Virus record (IMG/VR): IMGVR_UViG_3300050343_000130
DNA from: an uncultured virus (IMG/VR IMGVR_UViG_3300050343_000130)
Lineage: Duplodnaviria > Heunggongvirae > Uroviricota > Caudoviricetes > Crassvirales
DNA: 20,000 nucleotides
Direction: 5' to 3' (one strand)
The position numbers and the translations under genes were made by a program. Positions 3,001 to 19,922 of the stretch are shown one piece after another (the first letter of the stretch is position 1; every line of letters begins with the position of its first letter). Under the pieces are notes generated by a model. The model was not told the DNA's origin and made no database searches. It saw nothing but the letters and a program-made list of their open reading frames with translations.

Positions 3001-4585
3001 TTCTAAGCAAGATCAATGGTCCGAACCCTCTGAGCACTGGCAAGCTGGGACTATACTTAAAGATTTAAATGAGTTAACTGAAAAAGTAAATAGAAAAGAA
3101 TACTTAGGTGAGTTTATAGCTAATTCAGAAATATTATTCAGTCCTGAGAACATGAACAAAATTGAAGCTTTATATGGATCTAGACATAGGGAGGCTTTAG
3201 AGGATGCACTATATAGAATGCGTAATGGGACTAATAGACCATCGGGTGGCAATAGATTAACAAACGCGTGGAATAACTGGGTTAATAATTCTGTAGGTAC
3301 TATTATGTTCTTCAATAGAAGATCGGCTTTATTACAGTTATTATCAACAGTAAACTTTATAAATTGGTCTGATAATAATCCGTTAAAAGCTAGTATAGCT
3401 TTTGCTAATCAGCCACAATACTGGAAAGATTGGGTTAGAATATTTAATTCTGATAAACTAAAGCAAAGACGTGGTGGTTTAAAATCAGATATACAAGAGC
3501 AAGAGATAGCGAGTCAGGCTAAAAACTCTAAAGATAAGTCATCAGCTATAATAGCTTACTTATTAAAAATAGGTTTTACGCCAACACAAATTGCAGATAG
3601 TATGGCCATCGCAACAGGTGGAGCAACGTTTTATAGAAATAGAATAAACACGTACCTTAAACAAGATATGTCAAAAGAAGAAGCTGAAGCAAAAGCTTGG
3701 GCAGACTTTAGTAAAATATCAGACGAAGCACAGCAATCGGGTGACCCGGCTTTAGTATCTCAACAGCAAGCTAGTGTCCTAGGTAGATTAGTGTTAGCTT
3801 TCCAAAATACACCTATGCAATATACTAGGTTAATGAAAAAAGCTGGGCTTGACATTATAAACAGACGTGGTGATTTTAAAACAAATTTTAGTAAAATAAT
3901 ATATTACGGTGCTGTTCAAAACTTTATATTCTCAGCGTTGCAGAATGCATTGTTTGCTATGATTCCTGGGTTTGATGATGAAGAAGAAACTGAAGAAGAT
4001 AAGAAAAAGAAAGAAAACCAAAAGACTGGCAGAATAATACATAGTATGGTAGATACTATATTAAGAGGATCTGGTTTAGCCGGAGCAGTTGCAACTACCA
4101 CTAAAAATACTATTAGAAAATTTTTAGAGCAAGAAGAAAAAGGTTTTACCGCAGATCATACCTACACTATTATTGAAGCGGCTAACATATCACCACCTAT
4201 AGGATCTAAATTAAGAAAACTATACGGAGCAATACAAACATGGAAGTTTGATAAAGACGTTGTTAAGGAAAGAGGTTTTGATGTTACTTTAAATGGTAAA
4301 TTAAACATTAGCCCAACATACAATATAATAGGTAATCTGTCATCTGCTTTAGTAAACTTACCGCTTGATAGAGCTTTAATGGAAGTTGAAGGTATTGTTG
4401 AAGCGTTAGATGAAAGAAATACTTTATACCAAAGAATAGCTTTAGCTTTAGGTTGGAGAACTTGGGGTGTGGGTGCTAAAAATGAAGAAGAAGATCTTAT
4501 AAAGGATGCTGCTAAAGCAAAAAGAAAAGAAGAAGGAAAATTAAAAGCAAAAGAAACTAGAAGAGTTAATAAAGATGCTTTATAA
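2..4585 (+). CDS. Giant multidomain virion/ejection (polyvalent-like) protein, 5'-truncated; contains an HNH-like module and a HAD phosphatase domain
   Basis: Frame is open from base 2 (CAA TAT AAA...), so the GTG at 29 is not a true start; >1500 aa. Lies upstream of lysis genes in the late-strand block. HAD motifs DFDDTL / LTAR / K / FVDD at ~1980-2470; YEHMIP motif at 1571-1588; helical C-terminal region with hydrophobic segments. Confidence 0.75.
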   Translation, partial: QYKNLLKSNVLSSEAIANINSKVLTIVRTLKSKLNEKISNNRTVTPLIAEIKKEMGKQADIDLKKAMGGIKDNAIQKFLTKNKKAILENMTTTWLMGAIPSAVQKQVDGKFISNWKGQKIDRETVGTDNAGRTSGAEITRRKPNVASMPDAEFLSYFIADNKLIRGRKESLAKAMAEEISLEIFNTELQNENSEISKAFEQNQTLKGVELLDNYIVEVAKQTERGNAKFSKSLSANEANIVKSKANQLKNKLIKADVKLTAKRLLPFLIDTYPEIDEKRLKSFATEAIQSIQRYIKKIEITDKVDFGNFIFEGMSLKESNSNLLKFFGFLKNDVESLGALFNNPDLIAEQRGLELSYNTNLILKEGADGLIKILRWGRGHNVTSGKIGGGRNQIYAGNPDYLDNNLNNIPDVEVVYKKGKSTSIKAVFYKGIEVEKWKERIQSPAQKPAGGIEGFRKDSQIREDAAREAWTYLTDYLQHVKDNGSKINWVMTMMSLKSNMSSVLKAAAPVKYYFNGNYKGPLRYEHMIPTEYMVLKLTDYYYNGKSFDLNTLRDKYNVAIIPVIMDNNFNVLTQSQMNSSFDPMVDSEVDRYFNENTYGYPNMFPIESLTGETKGNIEGETWVKFNNVLKPQAAKMSKSMRIADKAMNAARMPDYGVNPKGISVYDFDDTLAFSKSKIIVTMPDGKVTKITPAEFAAKDEILSEQGASFDFSEFNKVVQGTKGPLAARLEKAIKKFGNKNIYVLTARPQASAPAIYEFLKGIGLEIPLENITGLQDGRPSAKADWMIEKFSEGYNDFYFVDDAYKNVKAVQDVLSVLDVKSKVQQARAKFSRSLSSEFNKMIERNKGVTAEAQFSNAVAKRRGANIGKYKWFIPSSADDFRGLTQYTFAGKGKQGEADQAFFEKALMDPYFAGISAIESSRQMMKNAYANLLKQMKPVRKKLNKLIPDTSYTYDQAIRVYLWNKAGYDIPGLSKRDLKKLLSIINNDSDLSAFADGALLSSKQDQWSEPSEHWQAGTILKDLNELTEKVNRKEYLGEFIANSEILFSPENMNKIEALYGSRHREALEDALYRMRNGTNRPSGGNRLTNAWNNWVNNSVGTIMFFNRRSALLQLLSTVNFINWSDNNPLKASIAFANQPQYWKDWVRIFNSDKLKQRRGGLKSDIQEQEIASQAKNSKDKSSAIIAYLLKIGFTPTQIADSMAIATGGATFYRNRINTYLKQDMSKEEAEAKAWADFSKISDEAQQSGDPALVSQQQASVLGRLVLAFQNTPMQYTRLMKKAGLDIINRRGDFKTNFSKIIYYGAVQNFIFSALQNALFAMIPGFDDEEETEEDKKKKENQKTGRIIHSMVDTILRGSGLAGAVATTTKNTIRKFLEQEEKGFTADHTYTIIEAANISPPIGSKLRKLYGAIQTWKFDKDVVKERGFDVTLNGKLNISPTYNIIGNLSSALVNLPLDRALMEVEGIVEALDERNTLYQRIALALGWRTWGVGAKNEEEDLIKDAAKAKRKEEGKLKAKETRRVNKDAL

Positions 4586-4688
4586 AACTTGAATTAGAAA
4601 TAGATGGTGATAATTTTATTGAGTATTATGAATGGAAAAAAGGTAAAAGTATCAAAGATAAAATAGAATGGCTTAAATCAAAAAAATA

Positions 4689-4997
4689 ATGAACGAACCA
4701 ATTACAATTAGAGTACGAAAAGCTAGAAGCAACGTAAAAGCACCAGAGGGTATGGAAATATCCATGAATGCAGATGGCAGTGGTGGTGCTGTCCCAGAAA
4801 AAAATCCATCACCTGCTAAAAAAATTGGACCTCAAGGCTTAGGCGTTAAAGGCAACAATGGGTATAGTATAGGATCACCGGCTAAAGCAAAAGATGCATG
4901 CTACCATAAAGCGAAAGCAAAGTATGATGTATTCCCTTCTGCTTATGCATCGGGATATATAGCTAAGTGCAGAAAAAAGAAAGGTAATATAAAATAG
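4689..4997 (+). CDS. Small basic protein resembling the N-terminal half of DUF5872-type proteins (PSAYASG motif)
   Basis: 102 aa, Lys-rich, KAKAKYDVFPSAYASGYIAKC motif, two SPAK motifs. Family resemblance recognised from memory. Confidence 0.6.
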   Translation: MNEPITIRVRKARSNVKAPEGMEISMNADGSGGAVPEKNPSPAKKIGPQGLGVKGNNGYSIGSPAKAKDACYHKAKAKYDVFPSAYASGYIAKCRKKKGNIK

Positions 4998-4998
4998 T

Positions 4999-5256
4999 AT
5001 GGCTTTTAAAATGAACTCACCTTTGAAAGTTAAGAAAACTAAAAAGGGCGCATCACTTAGGCGTTGGTTTAAAGAAGAATGGAAAACACCAAAGGGGAAA
5101 GAAGATTACACAGACGGCGAAAATACTTTTAGACCAACTAAAAGAGTGACAAAAGATACACCAGCAACTTGGAACGAATTAACTCCTGCTGAAAAAGCAA
5201 GAGGTCAAAAAGAAAAAAATACTAAAGGTAGAGTTAGTAGATATAAAAAAAAATAA
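4999..5256 (+). CDS. Small basic protein resembling the C-terminal half of DUF5872-type proteins (LRRWFKEEW...RPTKRV..DTPAT motif)
   Basis: 85 aa, very basic, starts MAFKMNSPLK, 1 nt after the previous stop. Confidence 0.6.
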   Translation: MAFKMNSPLKVKKTKKGASLRRWFKEEWKTPKGKEDYTDGENTFRPTKRVTKDTPATWNELTPAEKARGQKEKNTKGRVSRYKKK

Positions 5257-5257
5257 A

Positions 5258-5428
5258 ATGACTATAGACGACGCAAAATTGTACGCATTAAACACAACAA
5301 CACTTGGGGCAACAACTTTTATGCATTTCGAAGACGCTTTAAAAATAATACTATTGCTAGTAACTATAGGTTATACAATATCAAAATGGATTGGTGTTAA
5401 GAAAGATAAAAAGAAATGCGACAAATAA
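5258..5428 (+). CDS. Putative holin / small membrane protein (56 aa; not in supplied ORF track)
   Basis: MTIDDAKLYALNTTTLGATTFMHFEDALKIILLLVTIGYTISKWIGVKKDKKKCDK: hydrophobic helix followed by a highly basic tail. Fills the gap exactly and overlaps the amidase start. Confidence 0.65.
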   Translation: MTIDDAKLYALNTTTLGATTFMHFEDALKIILLLVTIGYTISKWIGVKKDKKKCDK

Positions 5429-5841
5429 ATAAACTAATAGTACACTGTTCCGCTACACAAGAAGGTAGAGAATTAGATGCGGCTGAAATAAATCGGTGGC
5501 ATTTAAAAAGAGGTTGGAAAGGCATAGGGTATCATTATGTTATTTTGTTAGATGGTACCATAGAATATGGTCGCAACATATATGAGCAAGGTGCTCACGT
5601 TAAAAATCATAATAAAGGATCAATAGGAATTTGTTATATTGGAGGTGTTGAATCAGAACGTGGCTCTAATGGTAAATGGATTGCTAAGGATACTAGAACA
5701 CCAGAACAAAAAGAAAGCTTATTATTATTGCTTAAAACATTAAAGAAGATGCATCCGGATGCCACGATACATGGCCACAACGAATTTGCCGCGAAAAGTT
5801 GCCCGTGCTTTGATGCAAAAGAAGAATATTGTAATATATAA
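5416..5841 (+). CDS. N-acetylmuramoyl-L-alanine amidase endolysin (Amidase_2, T7 lysozyme-like)
   Basis: LIVHCSAT, IGYHYVI, GAHVKNHN, SIGICYIGG, HGHNEFAAKSCPCF Zn-amidase motifs. Confidence 0.93.
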   Translation: MRQINKLIVHCSATQEGRELDAAEINRWHLKRGWKGIGYHYVILLDGTIEYGRNIYEQGAHVKNHNKGSIGICYIGGVESERGSNGKWIAKDTRTPEQKESLLLLLKTLKKMHPDATIHGHNEFAAKSCPCFDAKEEYCNI

Positions 5842-5875
5842 AAAAAAAAGGAGGCTAACTACAACCTCCCTTTTT
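5842..5875. terminator. Bidirectional rho-independent terminator between convergent late and early/middle operons
   Basis: A-run, then GGAGG (5850-5854), 10-nt loop, CCTCC (5865-5869), then C-TTTTT; U-tracts on both strands. Confidence 0.75.
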
Positions 5876-5877
5876 CC

Positions 5878-5903
5878 AACTAACTAACTAACTAACTAAC
5901 TAA
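5878..5903. repeat. (AACT)n tetranucleotide tandem repeat, about 6.5 copies
   Basis: aactaactaactaactaactaactaa seen directly. Confidence 0.9.
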
Positions 5904-5974
5904 TACATATAAATTATTGAATTTTTTATACACATTAGTTTTTATATGTATAAAAAAGTCATAACTTCTATCCT

Positions 5975-7699
5975 TTAGCCATCGCATGCAAGACAATCTT
6001 CATTCATTGCTTGCTGTGCAATATCTCCACGCAAGACAGACTCTGTCCTCGTATAATATAAAGTTTTAACCCCTCGTTTCCACGCTTCAAAATGAACTTT
6101 GTTAATCCATTTTGGTGTTGCAATGCTCGGGAACGCTAAATTTAAACTAACCGACTGATCTACATACTGCTGTCTCAGTCCAGCTTGATTGATTAATTCT
6201 AATTGATTTATTTCCTTAAAAGTCTTAAACACTTCCTTAGCAGGAATATCATGTCCGATTGTAATATCACTAAGTTCAGATATATTTTGAACAGACCCTC
6301 CATCAGCCAATATCTTATCCCATATTTCATTTGTATTTATTTTAAGTTTTTTCAATAGCTTAACTAGTGTCGGGTTTTTCCTAATGAAAGTCCCCTTCGC
6401 ACTCTGTTCTGTAAAAACATTCGCAGCCCACGGTTCAATACCTGGCGAAACATTTCCACTAAGCTTGCTATTACTAACAGTAGGAGCAATAGCACGTAAA
6501 TGAGTATTGCGCATACCAGTTCCAGCACACCACAAAGGTTCGCCGTATGTCTCTGCAAGATCCATTGAAGCTCTTTCGCTTTCAATTTTAACTTGTGAAA
6601 ATATTTTCCTAGTTTCAAACTGAGCAAGCAAACCTTCAAAAGGTATTCCCTTTTCTTGGAGATACGTGTGCCATCCCAAGACACCCAACCCAAGCGCTCG
6701 TCCTTTCTGAGCAGAACGAATGGCATTTTCAAAACCTCTAAGTCCTTTTGCTCTTTGAATAAATTCCTCCATAACGCCATCAAGAAACCATATAGAGTCG
6801 TATATAAGGTTTGTGTTTTTCCACTCTTCATATTTTGCTAAATTTAATGATGATAAGCAACAAACAAAACTGTGATTTTCATCTGTATGTAAAGTAATCT
6901 CAGAACATATATTGGTCATATGAACTTTGAGACCGTTATCTTTGTATGCTGCTGGGTTATTTTTGTTTGTATTTCCCTTAAATAAAATATAAGGCTCTCC
7001 AGTTGCTTTTCGCTTTTGTAATAATTTTGACCATCTCTTTCTTGCATCTTTATCACCTCCTTCAACTCTTCGCATGAACTTGTCGCCGACCACAGCGCAC
7101 TGGTGTAGGTTGAGGGACTGACGATTAACGTCTCCTTTAGGTTCTCTAATTTCGATCCAGTCTTCGAAATCGGCATGCTCAATATTGATGTTAACTGAAG
7201 CAGCTCCTCGTCGGACAGATCCTTGATTAGTGGCGAGTATTGTTGAATCGTAAATCTTACAAAACGGCACAACTCCATCAGATGTTCCATTTCCTGTTAT
7301 TTTAGCGCCAGCGGGTCTTATTTGATTTATACCGATACCAACTCCACCGCCGTGCTTAGCGAGTAGCATCATCTCTAGATTCTTTTGTCCTATGTCTTGT
7401 ATACTATCAGCCACATCAATACCAAAGCAACTAATAGGCAAGCCGCGATCAGTACCTGTATTAGATAATACTGGACTAGCGAGACATAACCAACCATTCC
7501 AAATGTACTCGAAGAAAGTTTCTGCCATTTCTGGTTTATATAATCTACGAGCAACCGTCTTAGCGACTCTTTGGTATGCTTCTTTAGGCGTTTCTCCGTT
7601 GAATAAATATCCCCCGGATATAGTCTTCTTGTATACGTCGTTATTACCCCACGCAGGGTAATCTTCTCCTTTTTTCCAATCATCATTCCACATTTGCAT
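5975..7699 (-). CDS. nrdA: Ribonucleotide reductase class I alpha subunit, compact, no ATP cone (start may be ATG at 7693)
   Basis: PISCF, TNICSEI (N-x-C-x-E), FVCCLSSLNL, IAPTVSNS, DQSVSLN, KTLYY and C-terminal CLAC motifs. Confidence 0.95.
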   Translation of the reverse strand: MQMWNDDWKKGEDYPAWGNNDVYKKTISGGYLFNGETPKEAYQRVAKTVARRLYKPEMAETFFEYIWNGWLCLASPVLSNTGTDRGLPISCFGIDVADSIQDIGQKNLEMMLLAKHGGGVGIGINQIRPAGAKITGNGTSDGVVPFCKIYDSTILATNQGSVRRGAASVNINIEHADFEDWIEIREPKGDVNRQSLNLHQCAVVGDKFMRRVEGGDKDARKRWSKLLQKRKATGEPYILFKGNTNKNNPAAYKDNGLKVHMTNICSEITLHTDENHSFVCCLSSLNLAKYEEWKNTNLIYDSIWFLDGVMEEFIQRAKGLRGFENAIRSAQKGRALGLGVLGWHTYLQEKGIPFEGLLAQFETRKIFSQVKIESERASMDLAETYGEPLWCAGTGMRNTHLRAIAPTVSNSKLSGNVSPGIEPWAANVFTEQSAKGTFIRKNPTLVKLLKKLKINTNEIWDKILADGGSVQNISELSDITIGHDIPAKEVFKTFKEINQLELINQAGLRQQYVDQSVSLNLAFPSIATPKWINKVHFEAWKRGVKTLYYTRTESVLRGDIAQQAMNEDCLACDG

Positions 7700-7886
7700 C
7701 AGGTTGTTTTTGTTGTTCTTCTAATAACTTAGCTATAGCTTCTTCATATCCAGGCATTCTTTTAACTGTCTCTAATAAACCTTGAGCCAGTGTATTAACG
7801 TGCATTATGCCTTGTGTATTATTGTGCATTCCTTGAACTATCTTGCCCATGTCATGCTTCATATTAATTAACGTTTTTTCTTTCAT
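7683..7886 (-). CDS. Hypothetical helical protein (67 aa, MKEKTLINM...)
   Basis: ATG at 7886 overlaps the upstream TGA (ATGA coupling). The supplied 98-aa version overlaps the upstream gene and is probably over-extended. Confidence 0.6.
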   Translation of the reverse strand: MKEKTLINMKHDMGKIVQGMHNNTQGIMHVNTLAQGLLETVKRMPGYEEAIAKLLEEQQKQPDANVE

Positions 7887-8134
7887 TTCATAAAATGTGT
7901 TATCCAGGCTATTAACCCGTTTAAATTTAAAGTAACTAGATTCCATTGTTTCCTCGAGGCTGTCTGTACCATTACGCATATAAAACCAATTATATAAAGC
8001 GATGGTTCAATTGTCCATTGTGCTGCTATCAGGAAGCCTGCTCCCATATAACCTATACGGGATGCAAACTTTTGATATGATGTTAACTTATTTGTATAAG
8101 CTAACAGCTTAAGTAATTTTCTTTTTGTTACCAT
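7883..8134 (-). CDS. Small membrane protein with 2-3 TM helices
   Basis: IGYMGAGFLIAAQW / SLYIIGFICVMVQTA / WNLVTLNLNGLIAWI hydrophobic segments; overlaps the nrdB stop. Confidence 0.65.
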   Translation of the reverse strand: MVTKRKLLKLLAYTNKLTSYQKFASRIGYMGAGFLIAAQWTIEPSLYIIGFICVMVQTASRKQWNLVTLNLNGLIAWITHFMK

Positions 8135-9096
8135 ATGTCCTCGAAGTCTTCTCCTTCGCCAGCTTTAGAATAATCTGTTGGCCTAATAGCGAAAAAGTCA
8201 GTATGAGTGACGCCCCCGGTAAGATGATAAAACCAATTAAGATTATCCGCTGCATCTTTTTCATACGCGAAATACGATCCCAAATCGATGTACCCCAATT
8301 CAACAAGCTTTTCATTTGTTCTCTTTCTTATAAATTGTTTTAAATCATTTGCCTTAATGCCTTCAATGTCTCCCATCTCAAACATTTTGTCTATATACTT
8401 CTCTTCTAAATCTACCATTGCTTCGGCAGCTTTAATTACATTTGCCCTGCATGCTTCTAGTAAAGTATCATCTTCCTGACACATATGTCTAAATAATTGA
8501 CAACCCATTTTACTATGCAATGATTCATCTCTTACAGACCATTTCATTTGCTGACCAATTCCTTTGAGTAAATTACGTAATTGAAAACTATATAACACAG
8601 CGAAAGCACTATATAAACTAACACCCTCTGCGAAAGCGGAAAATATAGCCAAGCTTGTACCGATGCCAACACTACTAGTACCGTCATAAGCAACCAAGTT
8701 ATCAAAACGTCTAGCTGTTGCAGGTTCGTGTAAAAATGCTTCATAGTCTTCTAATTTTAATGTTTCATTTAGATAGCTATATGCTACAGCATGCACAGTT
8801 TCTTGTGAGCCAAACATCATAGCCATCTGTCTTATCTCGTGTTTAGGAAACCACGATACGACCTTCTGGGTCCAATAGTCTGAAACAGCGCATTCGGTCT
8901 GCGCGAATCCAAGAAGTATGTTCCCAACGAGGTTTTTTTCTTTTTTGTCAAGTCTTTCATTCCAATCTTTTATATCGCTCTGCATTGAGATTTCAGTATG
9001 TAACCAAAATGCTTGAGCTTGTTTTAACCAACCTTCTGTATAGTATTCAGGATAATCAAATGGTTTGTACGCTATGCGCTCATCAAACAATCCCAT
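8128..9096 (-). CDS. nrdB: Ribonucleotide reductase class I beta subunit (NrdBi / class Id-like)
   Basis: YKPFDYP, FWLHTE, FAQTE68, E99-TV-H102-AVA-Y106, EGVSLYSAF, RDESLH, HTDFFA..PTDY. Confidence 0.95.
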   Translation of the reverse strand: MGLFDERIAYKPFDYPEYYTEGWLKQAQAFWLHTEISMQSDIKDWNERLDKKEKNLVGNILLGFAQTECAVSDYWTQKVVSWFPKHEIRQMAMMFGSQETVHAVAYSYLNETLKLEDYEAFLHEPATARRFDNLVAYDGTSSVGIGTSLAIFSAFAEGVSLYSAFAVLYSFQLRNLLKGIGQQMKWSVRDESLHSKMGCQLFRHMCQEDDTLLEACRANVIKAAEAMVDLEEKYIDKMFEMGDIEGIKANDLKQFIRKRTNEKLVELGYIDLGSYFAYEKDAADNLNWFYHLTGGVTHTDFFAIRPTDYSKAGEGEDFEDIW

Positions 9097-9239
9097 TATT
9101 TAAATATTTCTAACGCTATATCTACAAAAGGTAAATATAAGACATGCGTTACTTGTGTTTCTTCGTCATAAGTTCTTGCTCCTAGTAGTACACCAGGATA
9201 CGTACCTATAGATAAACTCCAATTCTTATTTTCCTCCAT
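9096..9239 (-). CDS. Hypothetical protein (47 aa; not in ORF track)
   Basis: MEENKNWSLSIGTYPGVLLGARTYDEETQVTHVLYLPFVDIALEIFK; its TAA overlaps the nrdB ATG (TAATG). Confidence 0.65.
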   Translation of the reverse strand: MEENKNWSLSIGTYPGVLLGARTYDEETQVTHVLYLPFVDIALEIFK

Positions 9240-9405
9240 ATGCTTTAATATTATATTTATCTTGTAGTTCAACTAATTCTTTATATTTTATTTTGCCTCT
9301 AACATCCCAACTCCATTTGCACCATTTATCAATCTGTCTTTCAGCGTACTTTTGCCTAGCTAATCTTTTCGACTGGCTTGGATGAGGCTTATCGTTTCGT
9401 CGCAT
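9226..9405 (-). CDS. Hypothetical basic protein (59 aa; not in ORF track)
   Basis: MRRNDKPHPSQSKRLARQKYAERQIDKWCKWSWDVRGKIKYKELVELQDKYNIKAYGGK fills the otherwise empty 9240-9359 gap. Confidence 0.55.
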   Translation of the reverse strand: MRRNDKPHPSQSKRLARQKYAERQIDKWCKWSWDVRGKIKYKELVELQDKYNIKAYGGK

Positions 9406-9818
9406 TCTTTTTGATTTTGTGGTTTGTATAATGTTGTACCCGGAAACTGCCTAACTATTAATTGCTTAAATAATTTCCATCGCATAGGAAATGATTCGTT
9501 TGCTCTACCTTTGGTTTCAATTATAAAATCTTCGCCAATAAAATCTGGTGTATACTTTATAGGTAATATTCTTTTTTCACCTCTATTCTTGTAATCACCT
9601 TTACCATTGGATTGTCTTTCATAAACTTTATTATCAAAATGAAATCCATTTAATAAAACAAACGTTTCTCCCTCGTATTTAGCTTTAATTCTTGCTTTCT
9701 TTAAAGCCATATACATATAACGTTCAAGGCCCGAAGCAAAGTTGATACCATCATATGATACCTTCTTTGCTTGCACTGGTCCTCTCTTCTTTTTTCTTTT
9801 ATAAGGTTTTCTCATCAT
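9360..9818 (-). CDS. PD-(D/E)XK endonuclease, T7 endonuclease I / DUF1064-like (putative Holliday junction resolvase)
   Basis: DGINFASGLE, KYTPDF, IIETKG motifs; start at ATG 9818 or 9815 rather than 9854. Confidence 0.8.
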   Translation of the reverse strand: MMRKPYKRKKKRGPVQAKKVSYDGINFASGLERYMYMALKKARIKAKYEGETFVLLNGFHFDNKVYERQSNGKGDYKNRGEKRILPIKYTPDFIGEDFIIETKGRANESFPMRWKLFKQLIVRQFPGTTLYKPQNQKECDETISLIQASRKD

Positions 9819-10017
9819 AAGCTTCTTTTGCTTTTTGTAAATATAACACAGCATCCATAAGCTCTTCTTGTAAATGATTAAGCCAGTCTATTACTTTACT
9901 AGGATCTTCATCTAGTGTAACACCGTATTTAGCATAGCCTACATCTGATCTAGACACAAATTTATCTACAACTCGCTCAACAACTGGATCTCTAAATTCT
10001 ATTTGTTTTTTACTCAT
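9799..10017 (-). CDS. Small all-alpha NTP pyrophosphatase-like (MazG-superfamily) protein
   Basis: RSDVGYAKYGVTL...WLNHLQEELMDAVLY with an EExxD acidic cluster. Confidence 0.6.
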   Translation of the reverse strand: MSKKQIEFRDPVVERVVDKFVSRSDVGYAKYGVTLDEDPSKVIDWLNHLQEELMDAVLYLQKAKEAYDEKTL

Positions 10018-10783
10018 TGTCTGTATCTTTTACGAATGTTCCATTAATCATTTTACCTGTTCTTGCCGCTATAACTTTATAAGCTTCGTCAATACAATAT
10101 TCTATATTGTATCCTTCTAAATGAGCTAAGTTTGTAAGCACTACAACAATATCACCTATTGCATCTATAACTTCAGGTTTATCGTTCTTAAGTAATGCTT
10201 TAGCTAACTCTCCAGCTTCTTCTTGTAATTTGACATATTGTGTATGTGAATTACCTTCGTTATATAATCCTCTTGTAGCTGCCCAGTTTCTTATAAGATC
10301 GAATCTTTCGTCTGAACGTACATCAGGATTGTGGTCTGTGTTATAAAACGCTTCATAAAAAGCTTTATTATATATATAGCTTCTTTTATCATTGTACATT
10401 GATGTTTTACAATTCTGCATAATCCAAGGTATTGTTTTGGCTGTTATTTCAAATGTGCCAAATTCCGTAGACCATTTAGCCCCTATGTGGTCCGATAAAT
10501 TACCTTTAAGTTTATTTACTGGATAGGGGAATGTACTTGTCTGCTCTGTAGCGTTAATTTTCATTTTATTTGATTTAATTAAATTTTTATAAGTTTGTCT
10601 ATCAACTTTATAGCCGTAAGACTTTTGAAGTTCTATTTCCTTTGCGGATATAATTTCTATATCATCGCTTGTAAATAAAACTTCATACTCTTCTGGTGCA
10701 TATCCTTGTTGCTCCGTAACTCTTTTATTAAGATTACGTGTAACTCCAATTTTTTTACCAGGAATGTGATAAATGTTGTACAT
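10010..10783 (-). CDS. Fusion of GIY-YIG-like N-terminal domain, unknown middle domain and C-terminal MazG-like NTP pyrophosphohydrolase
   Basis: N-term YNIYHIPGKKIGVTRNLNKR...E; C-term WAATRGL...QYVKLQEEAGELAKA...DAIGDIVVVL...RTGKMINGTFVKD. Confidence 0.8.
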   Translation of the reverse strand: MYNIYHIPGKKIGVTRNLNKRVTEQQGYAPEEYEVLFTSDDIEIISAKEIELQKSYGYKVDRQTYKNLIKSNKMKINATEQTSTFPYPVNKLKGNLSDHIGAKWSTEFGTFEITAKTIPWIMQNCKTSMYNDKRSYIYNKAFYEAFYNTDHNPDVRSDERFDLIRNWAATRGLYNEGNSHTQYVKLQEEAGELAKALLKNDKPEVIDAIGDIVVVLTNLAHLEGYNIEYCIDEAYKVIAARTGKMINGTFVKDTDNE

Positions 10784-10792
10784 ATTTTTAGT

Positions 10793-11605
10793 TTATTTGC
10801 CAACACTCAACTCTGCTTTTATAGCAGGATAAGGATTGTATTTGATTAAATTTATTTCATTATGCTTAGGTATTTCTAAAGAAACATCTAAACCTTTATC
10901 TAACTTAAGCTTTGGTAAAACTCTTTTAGGTCTGTTTATATATACATTTGCTTGTTCTAAATGATTGTTATATAAATGACAATCCCCAAGCTGTCCTATA
11001 AGCTTCCCAGGCTTCAAATTAGAGCCTTTAGCCAACATCTCGAGTAGTAAGCCATACATTGAAATATCGTACGGCAGACCAAGAAATATATCGACTGATC
11101 TTTGTTGCCACATTAAATCCATAACGCCATTGTTTATGTATATTTGAAATCCGTAATGACACGGAGGCAACACCATATCATCCATTTCATGAGGAGCCCA
11201 GGCGGATAACATAATGCGACGACTGTGCGGTGTATCACGTATAGCATTTACTACATTTGCTAGTTGATCAACCCCATTGAAGTCACGCCATTGTTTTCCA
11301 TATACAGGGCCAAGTGTTTCGTCCGTTCTACCTGATCTATTATAATCAGGGCGCCAGTATTTAACACCATTGTCTTCAAGATATTTAAGATCTGTTCTAC
11401 CTTGTAATATCCAAAGCAATTCTGTTTTAACTGCTTGGAAGCTTATCCTTTTACCTGTGAGTATAGGGAAGCCAAGTGACATATCGTGCTTAATCGTTCT
11501 TCCGAAGACAGCTCTCGTCCCTGTCCCTGTTCTATCCTCTTTATTAGATCCGCCGTGGAGTACACCTCCCATAAGTGCTTTATATTCATTTTCTATGTTT
11601 ATCAT
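10793..11605 (-). CDS. thyA: Thymidylate synthase-family enzyme with Asn-to-Asp specificity residue (candidate dCMP methyl/hydroxymethyl transferase)
   Basis: DRTGTGT, ELLWIL, GPVYGKQWRDF, SRRIMLSAW, LPPCH, QRSVDIFLGLPYDI, GDCHLYNNH. Start probably ATG at 11605. Confidence 0.9.
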   Translation of the reverse strand: MINIENEYKALMGGVLHGGSNKEDRTGTGTRAVFGRTIKHDMSLGFPILTGKRISFQAVKTELLWILQGRTDLKYLEDNGVKYWRPDYNRSGRTDETLGPVYGKQWRDFNGVDQLANVVNAIRDTPHSRRIMLSAWAPHEMDDMVLPPCHYGFQIYINNGVMDLMWQQRSVDIFLGLPYDISMYGLLLEMLAKGSNLKPGKLIGQLGDCHLYNNHLEQANVYINRPKRVLPKLKLDKGLDVSLEIPKHNEINLIKYNPYPAIKAELSVGK

Positions 11606-11864
11606 AATAATATTTACAAAATTCATAATACGCTTTCCAAATCGCATCTCTATTATATATACTCGGTGCTACATTAGGTTTCTCTCCACGTTTGTATGGG
11701 CCAAGTGTTATAGTTATTCGCCAGTTATCTGGATCGTTCTGTATTCCTTGAGGTGCAATTCTTATATCATTACGTATACAATACAAACAAGCTTTAATCT
11801 CGTCTGTAGTAGGAACGTATTTTGGCATGCTATAATTAGCGCCTTTTCTATATAAGCTTTTCAT
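11586..11864 (-). CDS. Hypothetical protein (92 aa)
   Basis: Abuts the primase-helicase stop and overlaps the thyA start; operon-consistent. Confidence 0.7.
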   Translation of the reverse strand: MKSLYRKGANYSMPKYVPTTDEIKACLYCIRNDIRIAPQGIQNDPDNWRITITLGPYKRGEKPNVAPSIYNRDAIWKAYYEFCKYYYDKHRK

Positions 11865-13583
11865 TTATTCCCAAGGCATAGCCTCATCTGTTAAGTTTAA
11901 TTGCTCGTGAGGTATAAAGCAACCCGACTTTGGTTCCCATTTAAAATGTGCTTCAGCACCGTTCTCTCCTAAGTTTTGAAACTTAACTTTAAGAACTTTA
12001 GCTTTAACAGTTTTCTCTTCATAATTTCTATGAACTAATATACCGTGATAAGAAGCATCATACCATTCACCTCCACCTTTAATGTTATACATTGTAGGTT
12101 CTTCAATCTTACCGTCTTGTGTCTTATACATCTTAGTAGGGTGAGCTACTATAAATACAAGCACATCGTACTTCTTAGCAAATATTTCGATCTTAGTTAA
12201 GTATTCCATAGTATACCTGTTAACATCTTCTGTCTTACAGTCTACGTCTCTAACCTTATTAAAAGGATCTATAACTAAACATTTAATACCTTTACGTTTT
12301 ACTAGCTCAGCACCTTTACGTAACACAGACTCTAATGTGTAACGTTCCATATCAATATGAAAATAATTACTATTGCAATGATCAGCTATTTGATTCCATT
12401 TGTCTCCGTGTATATCTGAAGCTGATGGCATACCTTCCCAGGTTTTTCTCATTAGCTTGTGAGCATGTAAATACGTCGGCGCATTTTCTGGTGATGCAAA
12501 AGCCGTCTTCCAACCGTAGTTACGATTATATCCGACAACCATCTGATCAACAAAGTCTGATTTACCTGAACTAGGTATACCAGTGACAGTAATAAATTGA
12601 CCGGTATAAGTACTAAAAATGTCATCAAAATTGGATAAGCCAACTTGATATCCTTTCTTAAAGCCGTTACGAACAAAGTCAGTAACCTCATCCTCAATAT
12701 CTCTGAATGTCGTAACATTTTCAAGCGGAACGGGTCTCGCTCCGGTAATACGCTCTGATAGTTTTTCTTTTCCATGCTTGATTAAGTATTCATTAGCATC
12801 TTTACAATCATCAAACGTTGCTAAGTAACAAACTTCTGCTCCTAGCCTTCTAACTAATTCTGATTGCAATGCTTGTCCAGCTTCATCCGAATCAACTGCT
12901 AATATTATTTTCTCTTTGTCTTCAAAATAATCAATACAATTGTCTAGATAATCTAAGTTATTACTATTTAGTGTTGCGCCATTAGGAACTGATATTGCGT
13001 TAGGTATTCCAGCTTCGTGCAATGCTAACACATCCATTTCACCTTCTACTATAATACAATATTCATATCCTACTATACTATTTATATTATAAAATACTTT
13101 CTCAGCTCCTTTATATAGTTTAAAGTTTTTTCTACCGTCTCTATATTTAATATTAATAAGCTGATCACCCATTATATAATTAAACTGAATCGTATTCTCG
13201 GCCTTGCCGGTTTGAGGCATATATTCAGAACCTTCAGTCACGTGTAATTCGTCTAAAGTTTTCTGTGATATACCTCTTGTTTTAAACCATTCATATACTT
13301 TAGATCCTAACTGTTCAGGATCTGCAACATGCAACGCATTGGGCCTAACGTATTCTTTTTCGCTAGCACCCTTGCGTTGATATGTATGTAATTGAAATGA
13401 TGTGTTACAATTATGACAAGTACCGAGACCACGTTCCCAATCGTAAGAAGCGCACTTTAATTTTTGCTTCTTGGGTTGTCTATCAGAAGAGCACAAAGGA
13501 CACGTCCCTTGTTTCTTACCTTCGTCAAGCTTATATTGATTGAACTCATCAATCAAGAATCCATTGATCTCTGTTGTCTGCAT
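11865..13583 (-). CDS. Bifunctional DNA primase-helicase (T7 gp4 / Twinkle-like)
   Basis: Zn ribbon CPLC...CHNC, TOPRIM EGEMD and DSDEAG/KDANE, Walker A GIPSSGKS, VIDP, VAHPTK. Confidence 0.93.
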   Translation of the reverse strand: MQTTEINGFLIDEFNQYKLDEGKKQGTCPLCSSDRQPKKQKLKCASYDWERGLGTCHNCNTSFQLHTYQRKGASEKEYVRPNALHVADPEQLGSKVYEWFKTRGISQKTLDELHVTEGSEYMPQTGKAENTIQFNYIMGDQLINIKYRDGRKNFKLYKGAEKVFYNINSIVGYEYCIIVEGEMDVLALHEAGIPNAISVPNGATLNSNNLDYLDNCIDYFEDKEKIILAVDSDEAGQALQSELVRRLGAEVCYLATFDDCKDANEYLIKHGKEKLSERITGARPVPLENVTTFRDIEDEVTDFVRNGFKKGYQVGLSNFDDIFSTYTGQFITVTGIPSSGKSDFVDQMVVGYNRNYGWKTAFASPENAPTYLHAHKLMRKTWEGMPSASDIHGDKWNQIADHCNSNYFHIDMERYTLESVLRKGAELVKRKGIKCLVIDPFNKVRDVDCKTEDVNRYTMEYLTKIEIFAKKYDVLVFIVAHPTKMYKTQDGKIEEPTMYNIKGGGEWYDASYHGILVHRNYEEKTVKAKVLKVKFQNLGENGAEAHFKWEPKSGCFIPHEQLNLTDEAMPWE

Positions 13584-13596
13584 TAATTATATTAGT

Positions 13597-13905
13597 TTAA
13601 AATGGTAAATCATCTGCCGGTTGTGCTACCGGTTGAGCTTGTTGTGGTTGATCTGTTCTTGGTGCAGCGGCTACATTATCACCGTTAGTCCACACCACTT
13701 TAACATTTCCTAAATAAGTCTTAGCTACTTTAGCTTCACGCTCCTCTTTAGATTGTTCAACAATAACCGGTCCTTGATTACCATAGTTGTCAACTTCGTC
13801 ATTAATTGTAATTGTTATAGGTAAATACTTACCTTTCTTGCCCACATAGATTTTATCTTTTGGGATTTCATTCAAGTTAATACTTGCTTTAATTATACTT
13901 GCCAT
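13597..13905 (-). CDS. Putative single-stranded DNA-binding protein
   Basis: Beta-rich core, Q/P-rich linker, acidic DDLPF C-terminal tip; lies between recombination genes and primase. Confidence 0.7.
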   Translation of the reverse strand: MASIIKASINLNEIPKDKIYVGKKGKYLPITITINDEVDNYGNQGPVIVEQSKEEREAKVAKTYLGNVKVVWTNGDNVAAAPRTDQPQQAQPVAQPADDLPF

Positions 13906-13906
13906 A

Positions 13907-14083
13907 TTAGTACGCGTTTATCTGATTAAACATTCTTGTTAATTGCTCTTTTGTAGCGCCAGTATTTCTTCTCATATTGTCTACTGCTTTAACATGATTT
14001 TGGTTAGTATAAAAATTATCTACACTTGTTTTCATTCCTGTTACTGTACAAATTTTTGTTTGGTTTTTTCTTGGTCTTGCCAT
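13907..14083 (-). CDS. Hypothetical protein (58 aa; not in ORF track)
   Basis: MARPRKNQTKICTVTGMKTSVDNFYTNQNHVKAVDNMRRNTGATKEQLTRMFNQINAY fills the gap, with a 1-nt spacer to the SSB start. Confidence 0.7.
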   Translation of the reverse strand: MARPRKNQTKICTVTGMKTSVDNFYTNQNHVKAVDNMRRNTGATKEQLTRMFNQINAY

Positions 14084-14092
14084 AATTAATAA

Positions 14093-14839
14093 TTAAAGGG
14101 TTTTGTTAATAAAAAATTGTTGTGGATCGAAATCCGGGTTTTTAAAAAATAGTTCATATGCTTCTATAGCTCTTTCAACTTTATCTCTACCGCTTTCCAA
14201 AAACTTTGGAGAACAATCAAATATACCTATTTGATGAGATGATTTGTCTATAGCCATAAACACCAGCTCATAACCAAATAATTTTTGGTAAATATAAGCT
14301 TGTGAATCGTAATTATATTTTCGTGCACTATACTGAAATTTTGATATGTCAGCTGTAGTTTTCAAATCAATAATTAATTTTTCACCGTGGTTTATTATAT
14401 CAGCTTTGCCTTTCCACATATGACCGCCTATTTCTTCAATCCCAGGCTGTTCGTAAGTTACACTCTCACCTGTTCCACGAATCAAATCTCTACATATGTC
14501 ATTAGACATTATCTTGTCTACTAACAATTCAGTTTTATCTACTTCGTGTTGCAATAAGCATATCTCACCGCCTGAGATCTCTCTATACGCTTTTGTATTT
14601 CTAGTTGTAGCTTCTACAATCTTAAAGTTATTAAGCTTTTCAGGTTCTAGTATAGCTGTATGAAAATACCCACCAATTAAAAATGCAGGTCTATTCTCTA
14701 GAGGTACGCCTAGCGATAGAGGGTTTGTTAACAGTGTAGAGATGTCAGAATTACTTAAAAACTTCTTACCGTAACTGCCGTAATAGTTTTTATCTTCCTT
14801 AAGTTTTTCTAACACCTCTTTCTTGTTAGCTTTTTCCAT
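14093..14839 (-). CDS. PD-(D/E)XK exonuclease, RecE/exonuclease VIII-like (DUF3799-type)
   Basis: LSNSDI, GGYFHTAILEP, KGKADII, IIDLKTT, YDSQAYIY. Confidence 0.82.
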   Translation of the reverse strand: MEKANKKEVLEKLKEDKNYYGSYGKKFLSNSDISTLLTNPLSLGVPLENRPAFLIGGYFHTAILEPEKLNNFKIVEATTRNTKAYREISGGEICLLQHEVDKTELLVDKIMSNDICRDLIRGTGESVTYEQPGIEEIGGHMWKGKADIINHGEKLIIDLKTTADISKFQYSARKYNYDSQAYIYQKLFGYELVFMAIDKSSHQIGIFDCSPKFLESGRDKVERAIEAYELFFKNPDFDPQQFFINKTL

Positions 14840-14840
14840 T

Positions 14841-15386
14841 TTATAGAGTTTTCAATTTTGCCTCTACTTCTTTAGATAAGGCATACTTTGCTTTTATAGC
14901 TTCAATCTTACCTCCTGCTTTAACGTAATCCTTTGCTTTAGCAAATGCTGGATCTTTGTCTGATGTTAAGGTAGGCTTGTTAGCTCTCGGTGCATTACCG
15001 TGGTTGTTTGTAGCGTCACTATCTGCAGTGTCGTCAATTAAAAATAAATTACCTAGCGCATATTTTTTTCCGTAAGATGATGCACTACCGAACTTTTGAG
15101 GCATTTGCATACCCTTCTGAGTTAGGTCAACGCCTACAAGTGCAGTAGCACGTATAGCATTTTCGCCATCGCAGATGATAGCAGTTGATTTGATAATTGG
15201 AAATTCTTGATTGTCAATTAGTTCCTCATCAATTCTTACTGATACTCCTAACTCTAAGAGAAAGGGTTTAGTTGCTTCTAGGATGTCTTCGGCTGATCTG
15301 AAGTTGTATTTGCCGAATGAATTAAATCTACTCTTCTTCGATTTAAATTTTGTCTGGATTTGGGCCAGCTTTTGGTTTATGGTCAT
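14841..15386 (-). CDS. ERF-family single-strand annealing recombinase
   Basis: FNSFGKYNFRSAEDIL, QKFGSASSYGKKYALGNLFLIDDTADSD (ERF GSxxSY..Y.L...D.D motif). Confidence 0.85.
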   Translation of the reverse strand: MTINQKLAQIQTKFKSKKSRFNSFGKYNFRSAEDILEATKPFLLELGVSVRIDEELIDNQEFPIIKSTAIICDGENAIRATALVGVDLTQKGMQMPQKFGSASSYGKKYALGNLFLIDDTADSDATNNHGNAPRANKPTLTSDKDPAFAKAKDYVKAGGKIEAIKAKYALSKEVEAKLKTL

Positions 15387-15436
15387 AAGGTATTGTTTGG
15401 TTTCTTATTATTATTATTACGTATTTTATTCATAAG

Positions 15437-16189
15437 TTAAAGATAATCAATTACTTGGTTGCTGTCGACATTAGCGATTAAATGGTCGATTGCTTCTTTT
15501 TTAATCTGCGAAACTATAACAGTTGCAGTCGGAACTTTGAGACCAATATAGTCTGCTATTTCTTTTGCAGAATGTTTGTTGCAATCTAAACCATAAAATA
15601 ATCTAACTACGTCGTATTGTTTTGATGTTAAATGTTCTTGCATTAGACTAAGCAAATAAGTGTTTAGTAAAGCTATGTTATATGGCTCGGACTTATCAGG
15701 TAATTGATAAGCAAAGTTATCTTCATCGGCTGGTGTTATATCATAACTTGAAAACATACTATTAAAAAACAACGCTACCATCTTATCATCTTTAGGGTTC
15801 TTGCGTATTTCATTTAGCTTGTGTTCTGGTATTTTAATATCGCCTCTGTTAATATCTATTGATCTTCTTATAGCTCCTTTAATTCTTTTACTTAGAAATG
15901 ACTTCAATGTTTTTTCAATGTCCTCTGATTCGTTTAAAACATCCCAGTCTAATCTGTCCACAGCTTTAGTTAATCCTGCACCGCCTTCTTGCAATAGATC
16001 ATTGATACTTAAAACTCCCGAAGCCTGCTGTGTTGTTGAAAACTTGCGAGCTAGATTTTCTACCAACGGCAGAAATCTAATTATAAGTTTATCTCTTGAT
16101 AATTCACTATAGCCAATGTCTTCATCAGGCATAGATGACTTAACATCTTCTTTATACCTAATGTAATTCTGTATATTATATTTTTTCAT
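15437..16189 (-). CDS. Phage sigma70-family RNA polymerase sigma factor
   Basis: Region 2-like LPLVENLARKF...DLLQEGGAGLTKAVDR...RIKGAIRR, IKIPEH, and region 4 HTH LTSKQYDVVRLFYGL...SAKEIADYIG. Confidence 0.85.
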   Translation of the reverse strand: MKKYNIQNYIRYKEDVKSSMPDEDIGYSELSRDKLIIRFLPLVENLARKFSTTQQASGVLSINDLLQEGGAGLTKAVDRLDWDVLNESEDIEKTLKSFLSKRIKGAIRRSIDINRGDIKIPEHKLNEIRKNPKDDKMVALFFNSMFSSYDITPADEDNFAYQLPDKSEPYNIALLNTYLLSLMQEHLTSKQYDVVRLFYGLDCNKHSAKEIADYIGLKVPTATVIVSQIKKEAIDHLIANVDSNQVIDYL

Positions 16190-16195
16190 TACTCA

Positions 16196-16816
16196 TTATA
16201 ATTGCTGGTTTAATAGTTCTTTTTCTCGTCTTAATTCATTTGTCATATTTCTATGCACTGTACGTGTTGAACAACCTAACATTATACTTATCTTTGATAT
16301 ATTGATTTTTTGTTTATTATCATTTAATATAAGCATACTATCATATATTTCAGCAGCCGATAGCTTTTGTCTACCAACCATCTGGCCTACTATAGATAGC
16401 TTTTGTCTCATATCTAAACCGCAGTGATCTTTGAATATAACCTTACGCAATTTATTTGGTGGTGGTTTTTCTAAGTCCTGCATTGATACATCATATACCA
16501 TGCTCTGCATTAATTGTTCTGATACTTTAAAAGTAACAAATCCATTTCTATTATCGCAGACGTATCGTGTTAATGCTGTAAAAGCATCAGCATCCATTTG
16601 GGGATTCAAGTACCATAATACGTACAAGTGCCACTTTAAAGATCTATATGTAGTTATCTTTGCTCTTGATGCAAACAAGTTATAACATTCATGGGTACCG
16701 TCTGCATAAAAATCACCCCAGGCAAATTGCTCTGTTGGTTTATCGCTGATCGGATTACGCCTGTATATTACTCTATGCCTGTTAAGATAATCTTTATTTC
16801 TTTCGTACTGTGACAT
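16196..16816 (-). CDS. Hypothetical DNA-binding protein with C-terminal HTH (possible replication/regulatory protein)
   Basis: C-terminal KINISKISIMLGCSTRTVHRNM helix-turn-helix. Confidence 0.6.
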   Translation of the reverse strand: MSQYERNKDYLNRHRVIYRRNPISDKPTEQFAWGDFYADGTHECYNLFASRAKITTYRSLKWHLYVLWYLNPQMDADAFTALTRYVCDNRNGFVTFKVSEQLMQSMVYDVSMQDLEKPPPNKLRKVIFKDHCGLDMRQKLSIVGQMVGRQKLSAAEIYDSMLILNDNKQKINISKISIMLGCSTRTVHRNMTNELRREKELLNQQL

Positions 16817-16853
16817 TAGCCTGTTACTATTATTATTATACTACCTATCGTCC

Positions 16854-17048
16854 CTATATGGACAAATACTTTAATCTTCTGTTATATTTAAGAAAAAGCT
16901 GGCTTTTTATTTTTGCCATCTCATAATTATCTTCTATAACATATAATACTATGCTGTTATGAAGCTCTGTTATTGCCTGTTCTAAAATTCTTTTGTGGTG
17001 CCGCTTTCTTCGGCTTTCGATAAGCTTTAATTTTATTGCTAATTCCAT
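16854..17048 (-). CDS. Hypothetical protein (64 aa)
   Basis: Overlaps the upstream stop; operon-consistent. Confidence 0.55.
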   Translation of the reverse strand: MELAIKLKLIESRRKRHHKRILEQAITELHNSIVLYVIEDNYEMAKIKSQLFLKYNRRLKYLSI

Positions 17049-18481: not shown

Positions 18482-18482
18482 A

Positions 18483-18740: not shown

Positions 18741-18741
18741 A

Positions 18742-19625: not shown

Positions 19626-19638
19626 ATTATTAATTTAT

Positions 19639-19910: not shown

Positions 19911-19922
19911 ATTATTTAATTT

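Follow-up and report, generated by a model that had tools for sequence, protein, structure and literature searches.

Gene content of the locus

The stretch analyzed here, called the window throughout, comprises 20,000 nt of the IMG/VR virus record IMGVR_UViG_3300050343_000130 (an uncultured virus assigned to the Crassvirales), and is phage DNA with a G+C content of about 34%. Within a block of replication and nucleotide-metabolism genes it carries three co-oriented genes on the minus strand, specifying a homologue of thymidylate synthase (ThyA), a three-part protein with a C-terminal MazG domain (hereafter the MazG fusion), and a protein of 72 aa (Table 1). The ThyA homologue has Asp at the position of Asn177 in E. 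coli ThyA, and a first-pass annotation of the window had proposed that the three genes form a pathway for modifying cytosine: a methylase or hydroxymethylase acting on deoxycytidine monophosphate (dCMP), with two pyrophosphatases that remove the competing canonical nucleotide, such as the triphosphate dCTP.

A 66,183-bp IMG/VR record rated 100% complete by CheckV (G001) was used as a whole-genome stand-in for the window. The two are 98.8% identical over window positions 5868-20000, and their ThyA homologues are 100% identical. In all, 303 related stretches were found in IMG/VR, and conservation is given below for 80 related loci.

Table 1. Features of the window, the three-gene set first (positions in nt; ORF, open reading frame; NTP, nucleoside triphosphate)
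Feature	Position	Strand	Basis or remark
ThyA homologue, 270 aa; predicted dCMP C5-methyltransferase (5-methyl-dCMP synthase)	10793..11605	-	PF00303; residue signature
TGT codon, catalytic Cys149 (E. coli Cys146), PPCH motif	11159..11161	-	Cys149 and His150 invariant in clade alignment
GAT codon, Asp180 (E. coli Asn177 position)	11066..11068	-	read directly; Asp180 invariant in clade alignment
Two extra C-terminal codons (Gly-Lys) past the canonical ThyA C-terminus	10796..10801	-	alignment to Asn-type sequences
MazG fusion, 257 aa, three-part, C-terminal MazG/PRA-PH NTP pyrophosphatase domain; candidate dCTP-clearing enzyme	10010..10783	-	Pfam, PHROG, fold
N-terminal domain of MazG fusion, residues ~1-62, beta-beta-alpha-beta-alpha, GIY-YIG/T5orf172-like	10598..10783	-	weak profile matches
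MazG-fold domain, residues ~154-241	10061..10324	-	AlphaFold2; invariant E188, E189, E192, D207, D211
72-aa protein, two-helix hairpin	9799..10017	-	overlaps MazG fusion gene by 8 nt
92-aa ORF, no assigned function	11586..11864	-	between primase-helicase and ThyA homologue; shares 20 nt at its end with the start of the ThyA gene
Primase-helicase	13583..11865	-	upstream of ThyA homologue
Class I ribonucleotide reductase, large subunit	5975-7699	-	PF02867, E 1.7e-93; syntenic in 63/80 loci
Class I ribonucleotide reductase, small subunit	8128-9096	-	PF00268, E 3.3e-56; syntenic in 67/80 loci
Weak sigma-70 region 2 protein	15437-16189	-
denV-like pyrimidine-dimer glycosylase homologue	17039-17530	-	PF03013, E 8e-06; PHROG 624, E 3e-49
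1518-aa ORF, open at the 5' end of the window	29-4585	+	no Pfam match

A ThyA homologue with aspartate at the Asn177 position

The ThyA homologue matches the Pfam family Thymidylat_synt (PF00303) over its full length (residues 7-268 to profile positions 2-266 of 266, E 8.4e-84), scoring 281.3 bits against a curated cut-off of 24.3, and is similar to E. coli ThyA (phmmer, E 1.6e-66) and to thymidylate synthases of solved structure (E 1e-63 to 1e-69). Its start at nt 11605 is backed by the near-invariant N-terminus MINIENEY among relatives. As the first-pass annotation had described, its stretch QRSVDIFLGLPYDISMY aligns without gaps to QRSCDVFLGLPFNIASY of E. coli ThyA, with Asp at the equivalent of Asn177. 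Positions 143, 146, 147, 165, 169 and 177 are given here in E. coli numbering; the last is residue 180 of the ThyA homologue itself. The catalytic motifs are canonical, again as had been stated (EDRTGTGT, PPCH and GDCHLY), and the residues shared with E. coli ThyA are R21, E58, W80, Y94, R126, R127, L143, C146, H147, Q165, R166, S167, D169, G173, H207 and Y209. The resulting active-site signature is L143, C146, H147, Q165, D169 and D177. Cys146 and the phosphate-binding residues Arg21, Arg126, Arg127, Arg166 and Ser167 are all invariant in 47 clade sequences.

The aspartate is real, fixed in the clade and unusual. It is found in all 120 of the nearest database proteins (75-90% identical) and in all 80 related IMG/VR loci (62-100% identical), which also have L143, H147, Q165 and D169 in common. 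An AAT-to-GAT read error, against which the first-pass annotation had advised comparing relatives, is therefore ruled out. When the top 150 representatives of clusters at 50% identity were counted by alignment, 139 had Asn at this position, 10 had Asp and one had Ser. The protein passes the NCBIfam equivalog model for thymidylate synthase (TIGR03284, 267.9 bits, cut-off 108.35), which means only that automatic naming would call it a thymidylate synthase, as had been anticipated.

Two further features accompany the Asp. Met180 (canonically Ser180, a position distinct from the Asp site) occurs in 189 of 190 unique clade sequences, whereas 132 of 142 Asn-type sequences have Ser. The C-terminus is extended in 187 of the 190, in 180 of them by two residues (GK, GN, GI or GT, chiefly GK or GN), whereas 135 of the 142 Asn-type sequences stop exactly at the column of E. 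coli Ile264 and only six, among them the SPO1 dUMP hydroxymethylase, are extended. In canonical thymidylate synthases the free C-terminal carboxylate closes the active site. Since the extension and Met180 are both fixed, the clade enzyme is not under the ordinary constraint of a thymidylate synthase, but these two features alone do not separate a methyl from a hydroxymethyl product. In addition, there is an insert after Trp80 and the Trp83 position is not Trp. Tyr at position 176 (F176Y) was considered as a companion of N177D and rejected, as Tyr is also present in 19 of the 142 Asn-type sequences.

These observations bear on another explanation of the gene, that its product remains mainly a thymidylate synthase, or acts on both dUMP and dCMP, and together with the phage ribonucleotide reductase supplies dTMP for an AT-rich genome, the Asp being tolerated and the MazG domain serving in house-cleaning or the rebalancing of dNTP pools. 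The canonical state of all other active-site residues and the TIGR03284 result would fit such an enzyme, but not the loss of the canonical C-terminus and of Ser180, nor the fixation of Asp in this clade when Asn is retained by nearly all cluster representatives. A block containing ribonucleotide reductase genes is the usual setting of a phage thymidylate synthase, MazG proteins like this one occur widely in other phages, and the ThyA homologue is the only one in G001, where no deaminase route to dTMP was found. Engineered E. coli N177D and L. casei N229D enzymes, however, switch preference and methylate dCMP (as cited in PMC8670742). Even counting in its favour the two of seven assayed Asp177 enzymes that gave no 5-methyl-dCMP (5mdCMP; 10.1101/2024.12.05.627091, discussed below), we consider a thymidylate synthase unlikely.

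The MazG fusion and the 72-aa protein

The gene directly downstream had been described as a MazG-domain fusion, and this holds. Its product exceeds the cut-offs of PF01503 (26.3 bits, cut-off 21.3) and PF03819 (22.6, cut-off 22), and matches PHROG families 1992 and 715, both 'MazG-like pyrophosphatase' (E 7e-32 and 2e-29). It adjoins the Asp-type ThyA gene in 79 of the 80 related loci. In the AlphaFold2 model (predicted local distance difference test score, pLDDT, 89.8), the C-terminal domain superimposes on 1vmg with a Z score of 10.0 and a root-mean-square deviation of 2.1 over 82 of 83 residues (VIA-align), and also matches MazZ of phage S-2L (7ody, Z 9.2) and RS21-C6 (Z 7.5-7.9). The metal-binding residues of its EExxE/ExxD motifs (Table 1) are invariant in 49 sequences. 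A Foldseek search matched mouse and human dCTPase, and the likeness of the fold is equal for these enzymes and for S-2L MazZ.

The other two parts of the fusion are less easily placed. The N-terminal domain matches T5orf172 below threshold (17.3 bits, cut-off 20) and MUG113 weakly, and contains the stretch YHIPGKKIGVT and the invariant residues Y5, H6, K11, G13, T15, R21 and E49. The middle region is conserved but of no recognised kind. Neither part gave a fold match, the whole-protein searches having been filled by matches to the MazG domain.

The third gene had been taken for a second small, all-alpha pyrophosphatase. The all-alpha part of this description stands, as the model is a two-helix hairpin (pLDDT 90), but the enzymatic part found no support: there was no Pfam match even at E 10, no Foldseek match, and a probability of only 0.2% in an hhalign comparison with the MazG fusion. 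The sole feature recalling the EExxE helix of MazG is a QEELxDA motif. PHROG matches were only to families of unknown function, neighbours in the ESM Atlas were viral hypothetical proteins only, and no similarity was seen to the small ORFs beside the pyrophosphatase genes of phages Xp12 and PaMx74. The protein is present in 78 of the 80 loci, with R23, S24, G27, K30, Y31, W45, H48, Q50, E51, E52 and D55 invariant. A complex prediction for the ThyA homologue, MazG fusion and 72-aa protein scored 0.00, which counts neither for nor against binding.

The position of the 72-aa gene varies. In 16 of the 80 loci (L045, L047, L049, L050, L061, L065-L067, L071, L080 and L085-L090) it lies directly upstream of the ThyA homologue and not downstream of the MazG fusion, and there it takes the place of the 92-aa ORF; all but one of the 16 (15 loci) lack that ORF.

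Predicted product and proposed pathway

In the MetaGPA study (PMC8670742, eLife 2021), no domain was more strongly associated with phage contigs enriched for modified cytosine than thymidylate synthase; positions 177 and 147 discriminated best, with Asp177 in the modified contigs, and PRA-PH pyrophosphohydrolase, dCMP deaminase and ligase domains co-occurred with thymidylate synthase on them. In a bioRxiv preprint (10.1101/2024.12.05.627091), five of seven Asp177 homologues from contigs with modified cytosine made 5mdCMP in vivo when co-expressed with T4 gp1, with the Xp12 enzyme as positive control. Rules for the product are given in a third report (PMC13326640, NAR 2026): N177D selects dCMP, Leu143 is associated with a methyl product and Asp or Glu at 143 with a hydroxymethyl product, and D169N marks the flavin-dependent 5-hydroxy-dCMP synthases. 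A literature search on Asp177 phage thymidylate synthases and on 5-methylcytosine in phages of marine Flavobacteriia found nothing on this phage family beyond these three sources.

For comparison, the ThyA homologues of Xanthomonas phage Xp12 (MT664984), Pseudomonas phage PaMx74 (JQ067093), T4, RB69 and SPO1, and E. coli ThyA, were taken from public records. In the DNA of Xp12 and PaMx74, 5-methylcytosine stands in place of cytosine. Position 143 is acidic in T4 gp42 (Asp), SPO1 gp29 (Asp) and RB69 (Glu) but Leu in the window's enzyme, which also keeps Asp169, unlike the 5-hydroxy-dCMP synthase of the RB69 gp48 type with Asn169. Because L143, D169 and D177 all fit the rules of PMC13326640, the enzyme is predicted to be a 5-methyl-dCMP synthase, its product being 5-methyl-dCMP rather than 5-hydroxymethyl- or 5-hydroxy-dCMP. 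Of the two products that the first-pass annotation had left open, the residue rules thus favour the methyl one and disfavour the hydroxymethyl one, and the version with two pyrophosphatases is not supported as regards the 72-aa protein.

The pathway that we propose would run as follows. The ThyA homologue would act as a folate-dependent methyltransferase on C5 of pyrimidines, its ThyA fold having been redirected from dUMP to dCMP by the change of Asn to Asp, and would convert dCMP and 5,10-methylene-tetrahydrofolate to 5-methyl-dCMP and dihydrofolate. Phosphorylation of 5-methyl-dCMP to the triphosphate would be left to host kinases, and incorporation into phage DNA to the host polymerase. The MazG-domain protein would hydrolyze dCTP to dCMP, both removing the competitor and feeding the methylase, much as gp56 does for gp42 in T4. 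The outcome would be DNA with 5-methylcytosine for much or all of its cytosine, which could be protected from many restriction enzymes.

In L. casei thymidylate synthase, mutants of the C-terminus and of Trp lose hydride transfer, and hydroxymethyl-dUMP can form. A second explanation has the enzyme acting on dCMP but forming another C5 product, most simply 5-hydroxymethyl-dCMP: the clade-fixed extension and the loss of Trp83 would loosen closure of the active site, letting water in place of hydride attack the exocyclic methylene. Both features are seen in the sequence, but neither is peculiar to hydroxymethylation, since the Xp12 and PaMx74 methylases share non-canonical C-termini, and Trp83 is likewise missing from the td protein of RB69, a canonical-type ThyA homologue with Asn177. 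Leu143 in place of Asp or Glu speaks against this product, as does Asp169 against the 5-hydroxy variant (PMC13326640). No glycosyltransferase or carbamoyltransferase was seen in Pfam scans of the window and of G001, so there is no evident need for a hydroxymethyl handle. We regard another C5 product as quite unlikely.

Pathway genes and the weight of the evidence

In agreement with the first-pass annotation, a Pfam scan found no dihydrofolate reductase (DHFR), dNMP kinase or DNA polymerase in the window. The same picture emerged for the stand-in genome, where six-frame profile searches of G001 gave no dCMP-family deaminase (PF00383), DHFR (PF00186), family A DNA polymerase or C5 DNA methyltransferase. 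Pfam scanning of 31 window proteins and 51 from G001 (82 altogether) brought up no kinase, no glycosyltransferase and no further polymerase, and no carbamoyltransferase was seen in either set. The 51 are those of the 81 ORFs called in G001 that lie outside the stretch homologous to the window; most others were covered by their window counterparts, and a single spanning ORF, the sigma-like gene, was scanned only as its copy in the window. For PHROG, the set scanned was 30 of these proteins, 18 encoded in the window and 12 in G001. The sole Walker A motif in G001 is that of the primase-helicase. As phage genes for these steps were not recognised, phosphorylation of 5-methyl-dCMP, recycling of dihydrofolate, supply of dTTP and DNA synthesis would all fall to the host.

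The gene inventory also bears on a third explanation, in which 5-methyl-dCMP is chiefly an intermediate on the way to thymidylate through a host deaminase, leaving little 5-methylcytosine in the DNA. Phages of the Xp12 type do draw dTTP from 5-methyl-deoxycytidine nucleotides, and the genome here is AT-rich, but the published route needs a dedicated 5-methylcytosine-selective deaminase (10.1101/2024.12.05.627091) and none was found among the phage genes of G001. A MazG enzyme that clears dCTP would moreover be pointless if thymidylate supply were the only purpose, and we judge this by-pass very unlikely.

Several points weigh against the synthesis of 5-methylcytosine DNA by this gene set. Staphylococcus, Lactobacillus and Aeromonas phages have MazG proteins that share 47-49% identity with this MazG domain; to our knowledge, modified cytosine is not known from these phages, and the pairing of the ThyA homologue with MazG is therefore not specific. 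Xp12 and PaMx74 have the signature N143, P147 and L165, and hence Leu143 is not a defining feature of these proven methylases; as they differ in the active site and are distant, it is mainly a single residue that supports the transfer of function. At position 147, the second discriminating site of MetaGPA (PMC8670742), the window's enzyme retains His. Two of the seven assayed Asp177 enzymes did not yield 5mdCMP, and a phage dNMP kinase was co-expressed in those E. coli assays (10.1101/2024.12.05.627091), while G001 has no recognisable kinase or deaminase like those found alongside the enzyme in Xp12 or used with it in the published assays. This reliance on the host is the chief weakness of a model of full replacement and, if the model is right, also its most interesting point. 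Lastly, G001 has fewer CATG and CGCG sites than expected (observed/expected 0.57 and 0.58; other four-base palindromes 0.81-1.06). A deficit of this kind is unexpected if all cytosines are protected, but it is a weak argument and is not interpretable as a read-out of modification.

Weighing these points, we think it on balance probable, from the residue signature, its conservation and the gene pairing, that the locus specifies a dCMP C5-methyltransferase and a dCTP-clearing MazG enzyme which together give rise to 5-methylcytosine DNA. The analogy with T4 gp42 and gp56 drawn in the first-pass annotation would be the best-supported reading of the pair, and Xp12 and PaMx74 carry the same combination of Asp-type ThyA homologue and PRA-PH protein. 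If so, a common family of seawater phages would have chemically modified genomes that are hidden by the name 'thymidylate synthase', with consequences for the evasion of restriction and other defences in marine Bacteroidota, for the way methylation signals from marine metagenomes are interpreted, and for enzyme mining. A much broader proposal, unlikely in its entirety, is that an abundant marine phage family with genomes of 50-66 kb, probably infecting Flavobacteriia, swaps cytosine for 5-methylcytosine by a minimal kit: the extended ThyA homologue with Asp177 and Met180, and the GIY-YIG-like/MazG fusion with the 72-aa hairpin protein as a new dCTP-exclusion module, the phage having no kinase, deaminase, DHFR or DNA polymerase of its own and the kinases and replisome of the host building the fully methylated DNA.

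Phylogeny of the Asp-type homologues

Trees were inferred with FastTree (171 sequences) and by a quick IQ-TREE search (59 sequences). The 59-sequence sample consisted of 19 named Asn-type sequences, all 10 Asp representatives and 22 random Asn-type sequences shorter than 340 aa; T4 gp42, the RB69 gp42 homologue and SPO1 gp29, which have long branches, were left out, as were 101 of the 150 representatives. In both trees the clade of the window's enzyme falls inside the Asn-type ThyA proteins (support 0.999 and 99), and Xp12 and PaMx74 pair on a very long branch apart from it. The Asp state requires eight changes on the tree, of which just two are forced by well-supported branches.

This topology suggested separate origins. 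A single clade uniting the window's enzyme with Xp12 and PaMx74, however, was not rejected by the approximately unbiased (AU) test (p-AU 0.925, or 0.909 without the motif columns), and we make no claim that the two groups acquired Asp independently. Constrained searches gave trees that were better by 34 and 50 log-likelihood units, which indicates that the free quick searches were inadequate.

Genome context and distribution

Beside the three-gene set, the 92-aa ORF upstream (57 of the 80 loci) has no match in Pfam, PHROG or NCBIfam, and downstream lies a gene for a DUF1064 protein, which PHROG identifies as a Holliday junction resolvase. Farther upstream are genes for ERF, a PDDEXK nuclease, the sigma-like factor, the denV-like protein and an ATP-dependent ligase (Pfam/PHROG). 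Over window positions 1-701 and 1049-5849 the identity with G001 is just 86-87%, unlike the 98.8% from 5868 onward, so that the lysis/structural arm and the replication arm meet at a sharp mosaic boundary. Positions 1049-5849 hold the 1518-aa ORF, small ORFs and an amidase gene; the G001 counterparts of the 1518-aa ORF (1800 and 879 aa) have no Pfam or PHROG match.

Three other features of G001 were noted. Its portal gene is split into ORFs in different frames (2337-3470 and 3475-4767) that correspond to the first and second halves of PHROG 6547, which could reflect a frameshift, an assembly error or a programmed shift. Adjacent genes at 59790-61638 code for GroEL-like (PF00118, E 8e-57) and GroES-like (PF00166) chaperonins. 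Between 10154 and 15921, proteins of 98 and 1778 aa have weak matches to muzzle domains of crAss viruses (PF25731 and PF25729), which hints at a distant link to crAss-like podoviruses.

A megablast search for a close cultured relative gave no match. The top ThyA in the phage collection is 44.5% identical and, going by its annotation, of the Asn type; the top relative of the primase-helicase (43%) is from Cellulophaga phage phi10:1, which has no ThyA gene in the region shown. For window positions 6000-15000, 17 public sequencing runs contain at least half of the sampled words. The runs with matches overall (20 entries) represent 17 studies, for the most part metagenomes of seawater, marine or estuary samples, and six of these runs (shares 0.47-0.59) bear coded organism labels. 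None of these entries reports a DNA modification.

Comparison with known systems

Several elements of the proposed pathway have precedents, and the first-pass annotation had overrated its novelty: Asp177 homologues co-occurring with PRA-PH were already described in PMC8670742, and formation of 5mdCMP was reported in 10.1101/2024.12.05.627091. The principle is thus established: phage enzymes of this class have been known since Xp12, and surveys of them date from 2021-2026. The environmental Asp177 homologues of MetaGPA resemble the window's enzyme in their phage origin and in the co-occurring PRA-PH domain (PMC8670742). The homologues chosen for assay, however, adjoined dCMP-family deaminases (10.1101/2024.12.05.627091), whereas the window's family lacks one.

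T4 gp42 and gp56 follow the same logic, pairing an Asp-bearing, dCMP-specific ThyA homologue with an all-alpha NTP pyrophosphatase that removes dCTP. A phmmer comparison of T4 gp42 with the window's enzyme gave no hit at E 10; gp42 has Asp143 and Thr147, lacks the C-terminal region of ThyA and forms a hydroxymethyl product, and T4 also has a dNMP kinase and glucosyltransferases. T4 dCTPase (gene 56) matches PRA-PH weakly (E 0.0015, below the cut-off).

The ThyA homologues of Xp12 and PaMx74, also annotated 'thymidylate synthase', share with that of the window the fold, the catalytic Cys, Asp177, Asp169 and a non-acidic residue 143, and each directly adjoins a gene for a PRA-PH/MazG-type pyrophosphatase (PRA-PH, E 6e-17 and 1e-17) in the order pyrophosphatase, thymidylate synthase, dCMP deaminase, DHFR. 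Unlike G001, in which none is recognised, both phages have this adjacent deaminase and DHFR and a DNA polymerase of their own, and Xp12 induces its own 5-methyl-dCMP kinase. For the pyrophosphatases, no similarity between these phages and the window could be detected (BLASTP E 0.26), and the order of the domains is not the same. The enzymes differ too, at positions 143, 147 and 165 as set out above, and phmmer E values for the window's enzyme are 4e-24 to Xp12 and 3e-25 to PaMx74 compared with 2e-66 to E. coli ThyA. Being far closer to the latter, the clade is in effect a natural N177D version of a canonical ThyA and not of the Xp12 type.

In this respect, it can be compared with the engineered N177D and N229D enzymes, which have a canonical ThyA active site except for the change of Asn to Asp, and methylate dCMP (PMC8670742). 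Unlike in those mutants, the Asp here arose naturally, has become fixed across a large clade of phages, and is accompanied by Met180, the Gly-Lys extension and the insert after Trp80. The clade is therefore a sequence-distinct and widespread marine branch of a known class of phage enzymes. What is new in the present analysis is that, unlike Xp12, it has a canonical ThyA active site together with the fixed extension and Met180, and it offers a natural experiment on the N177D switch, with its companion changes, in an otherwise canonical ThyA.

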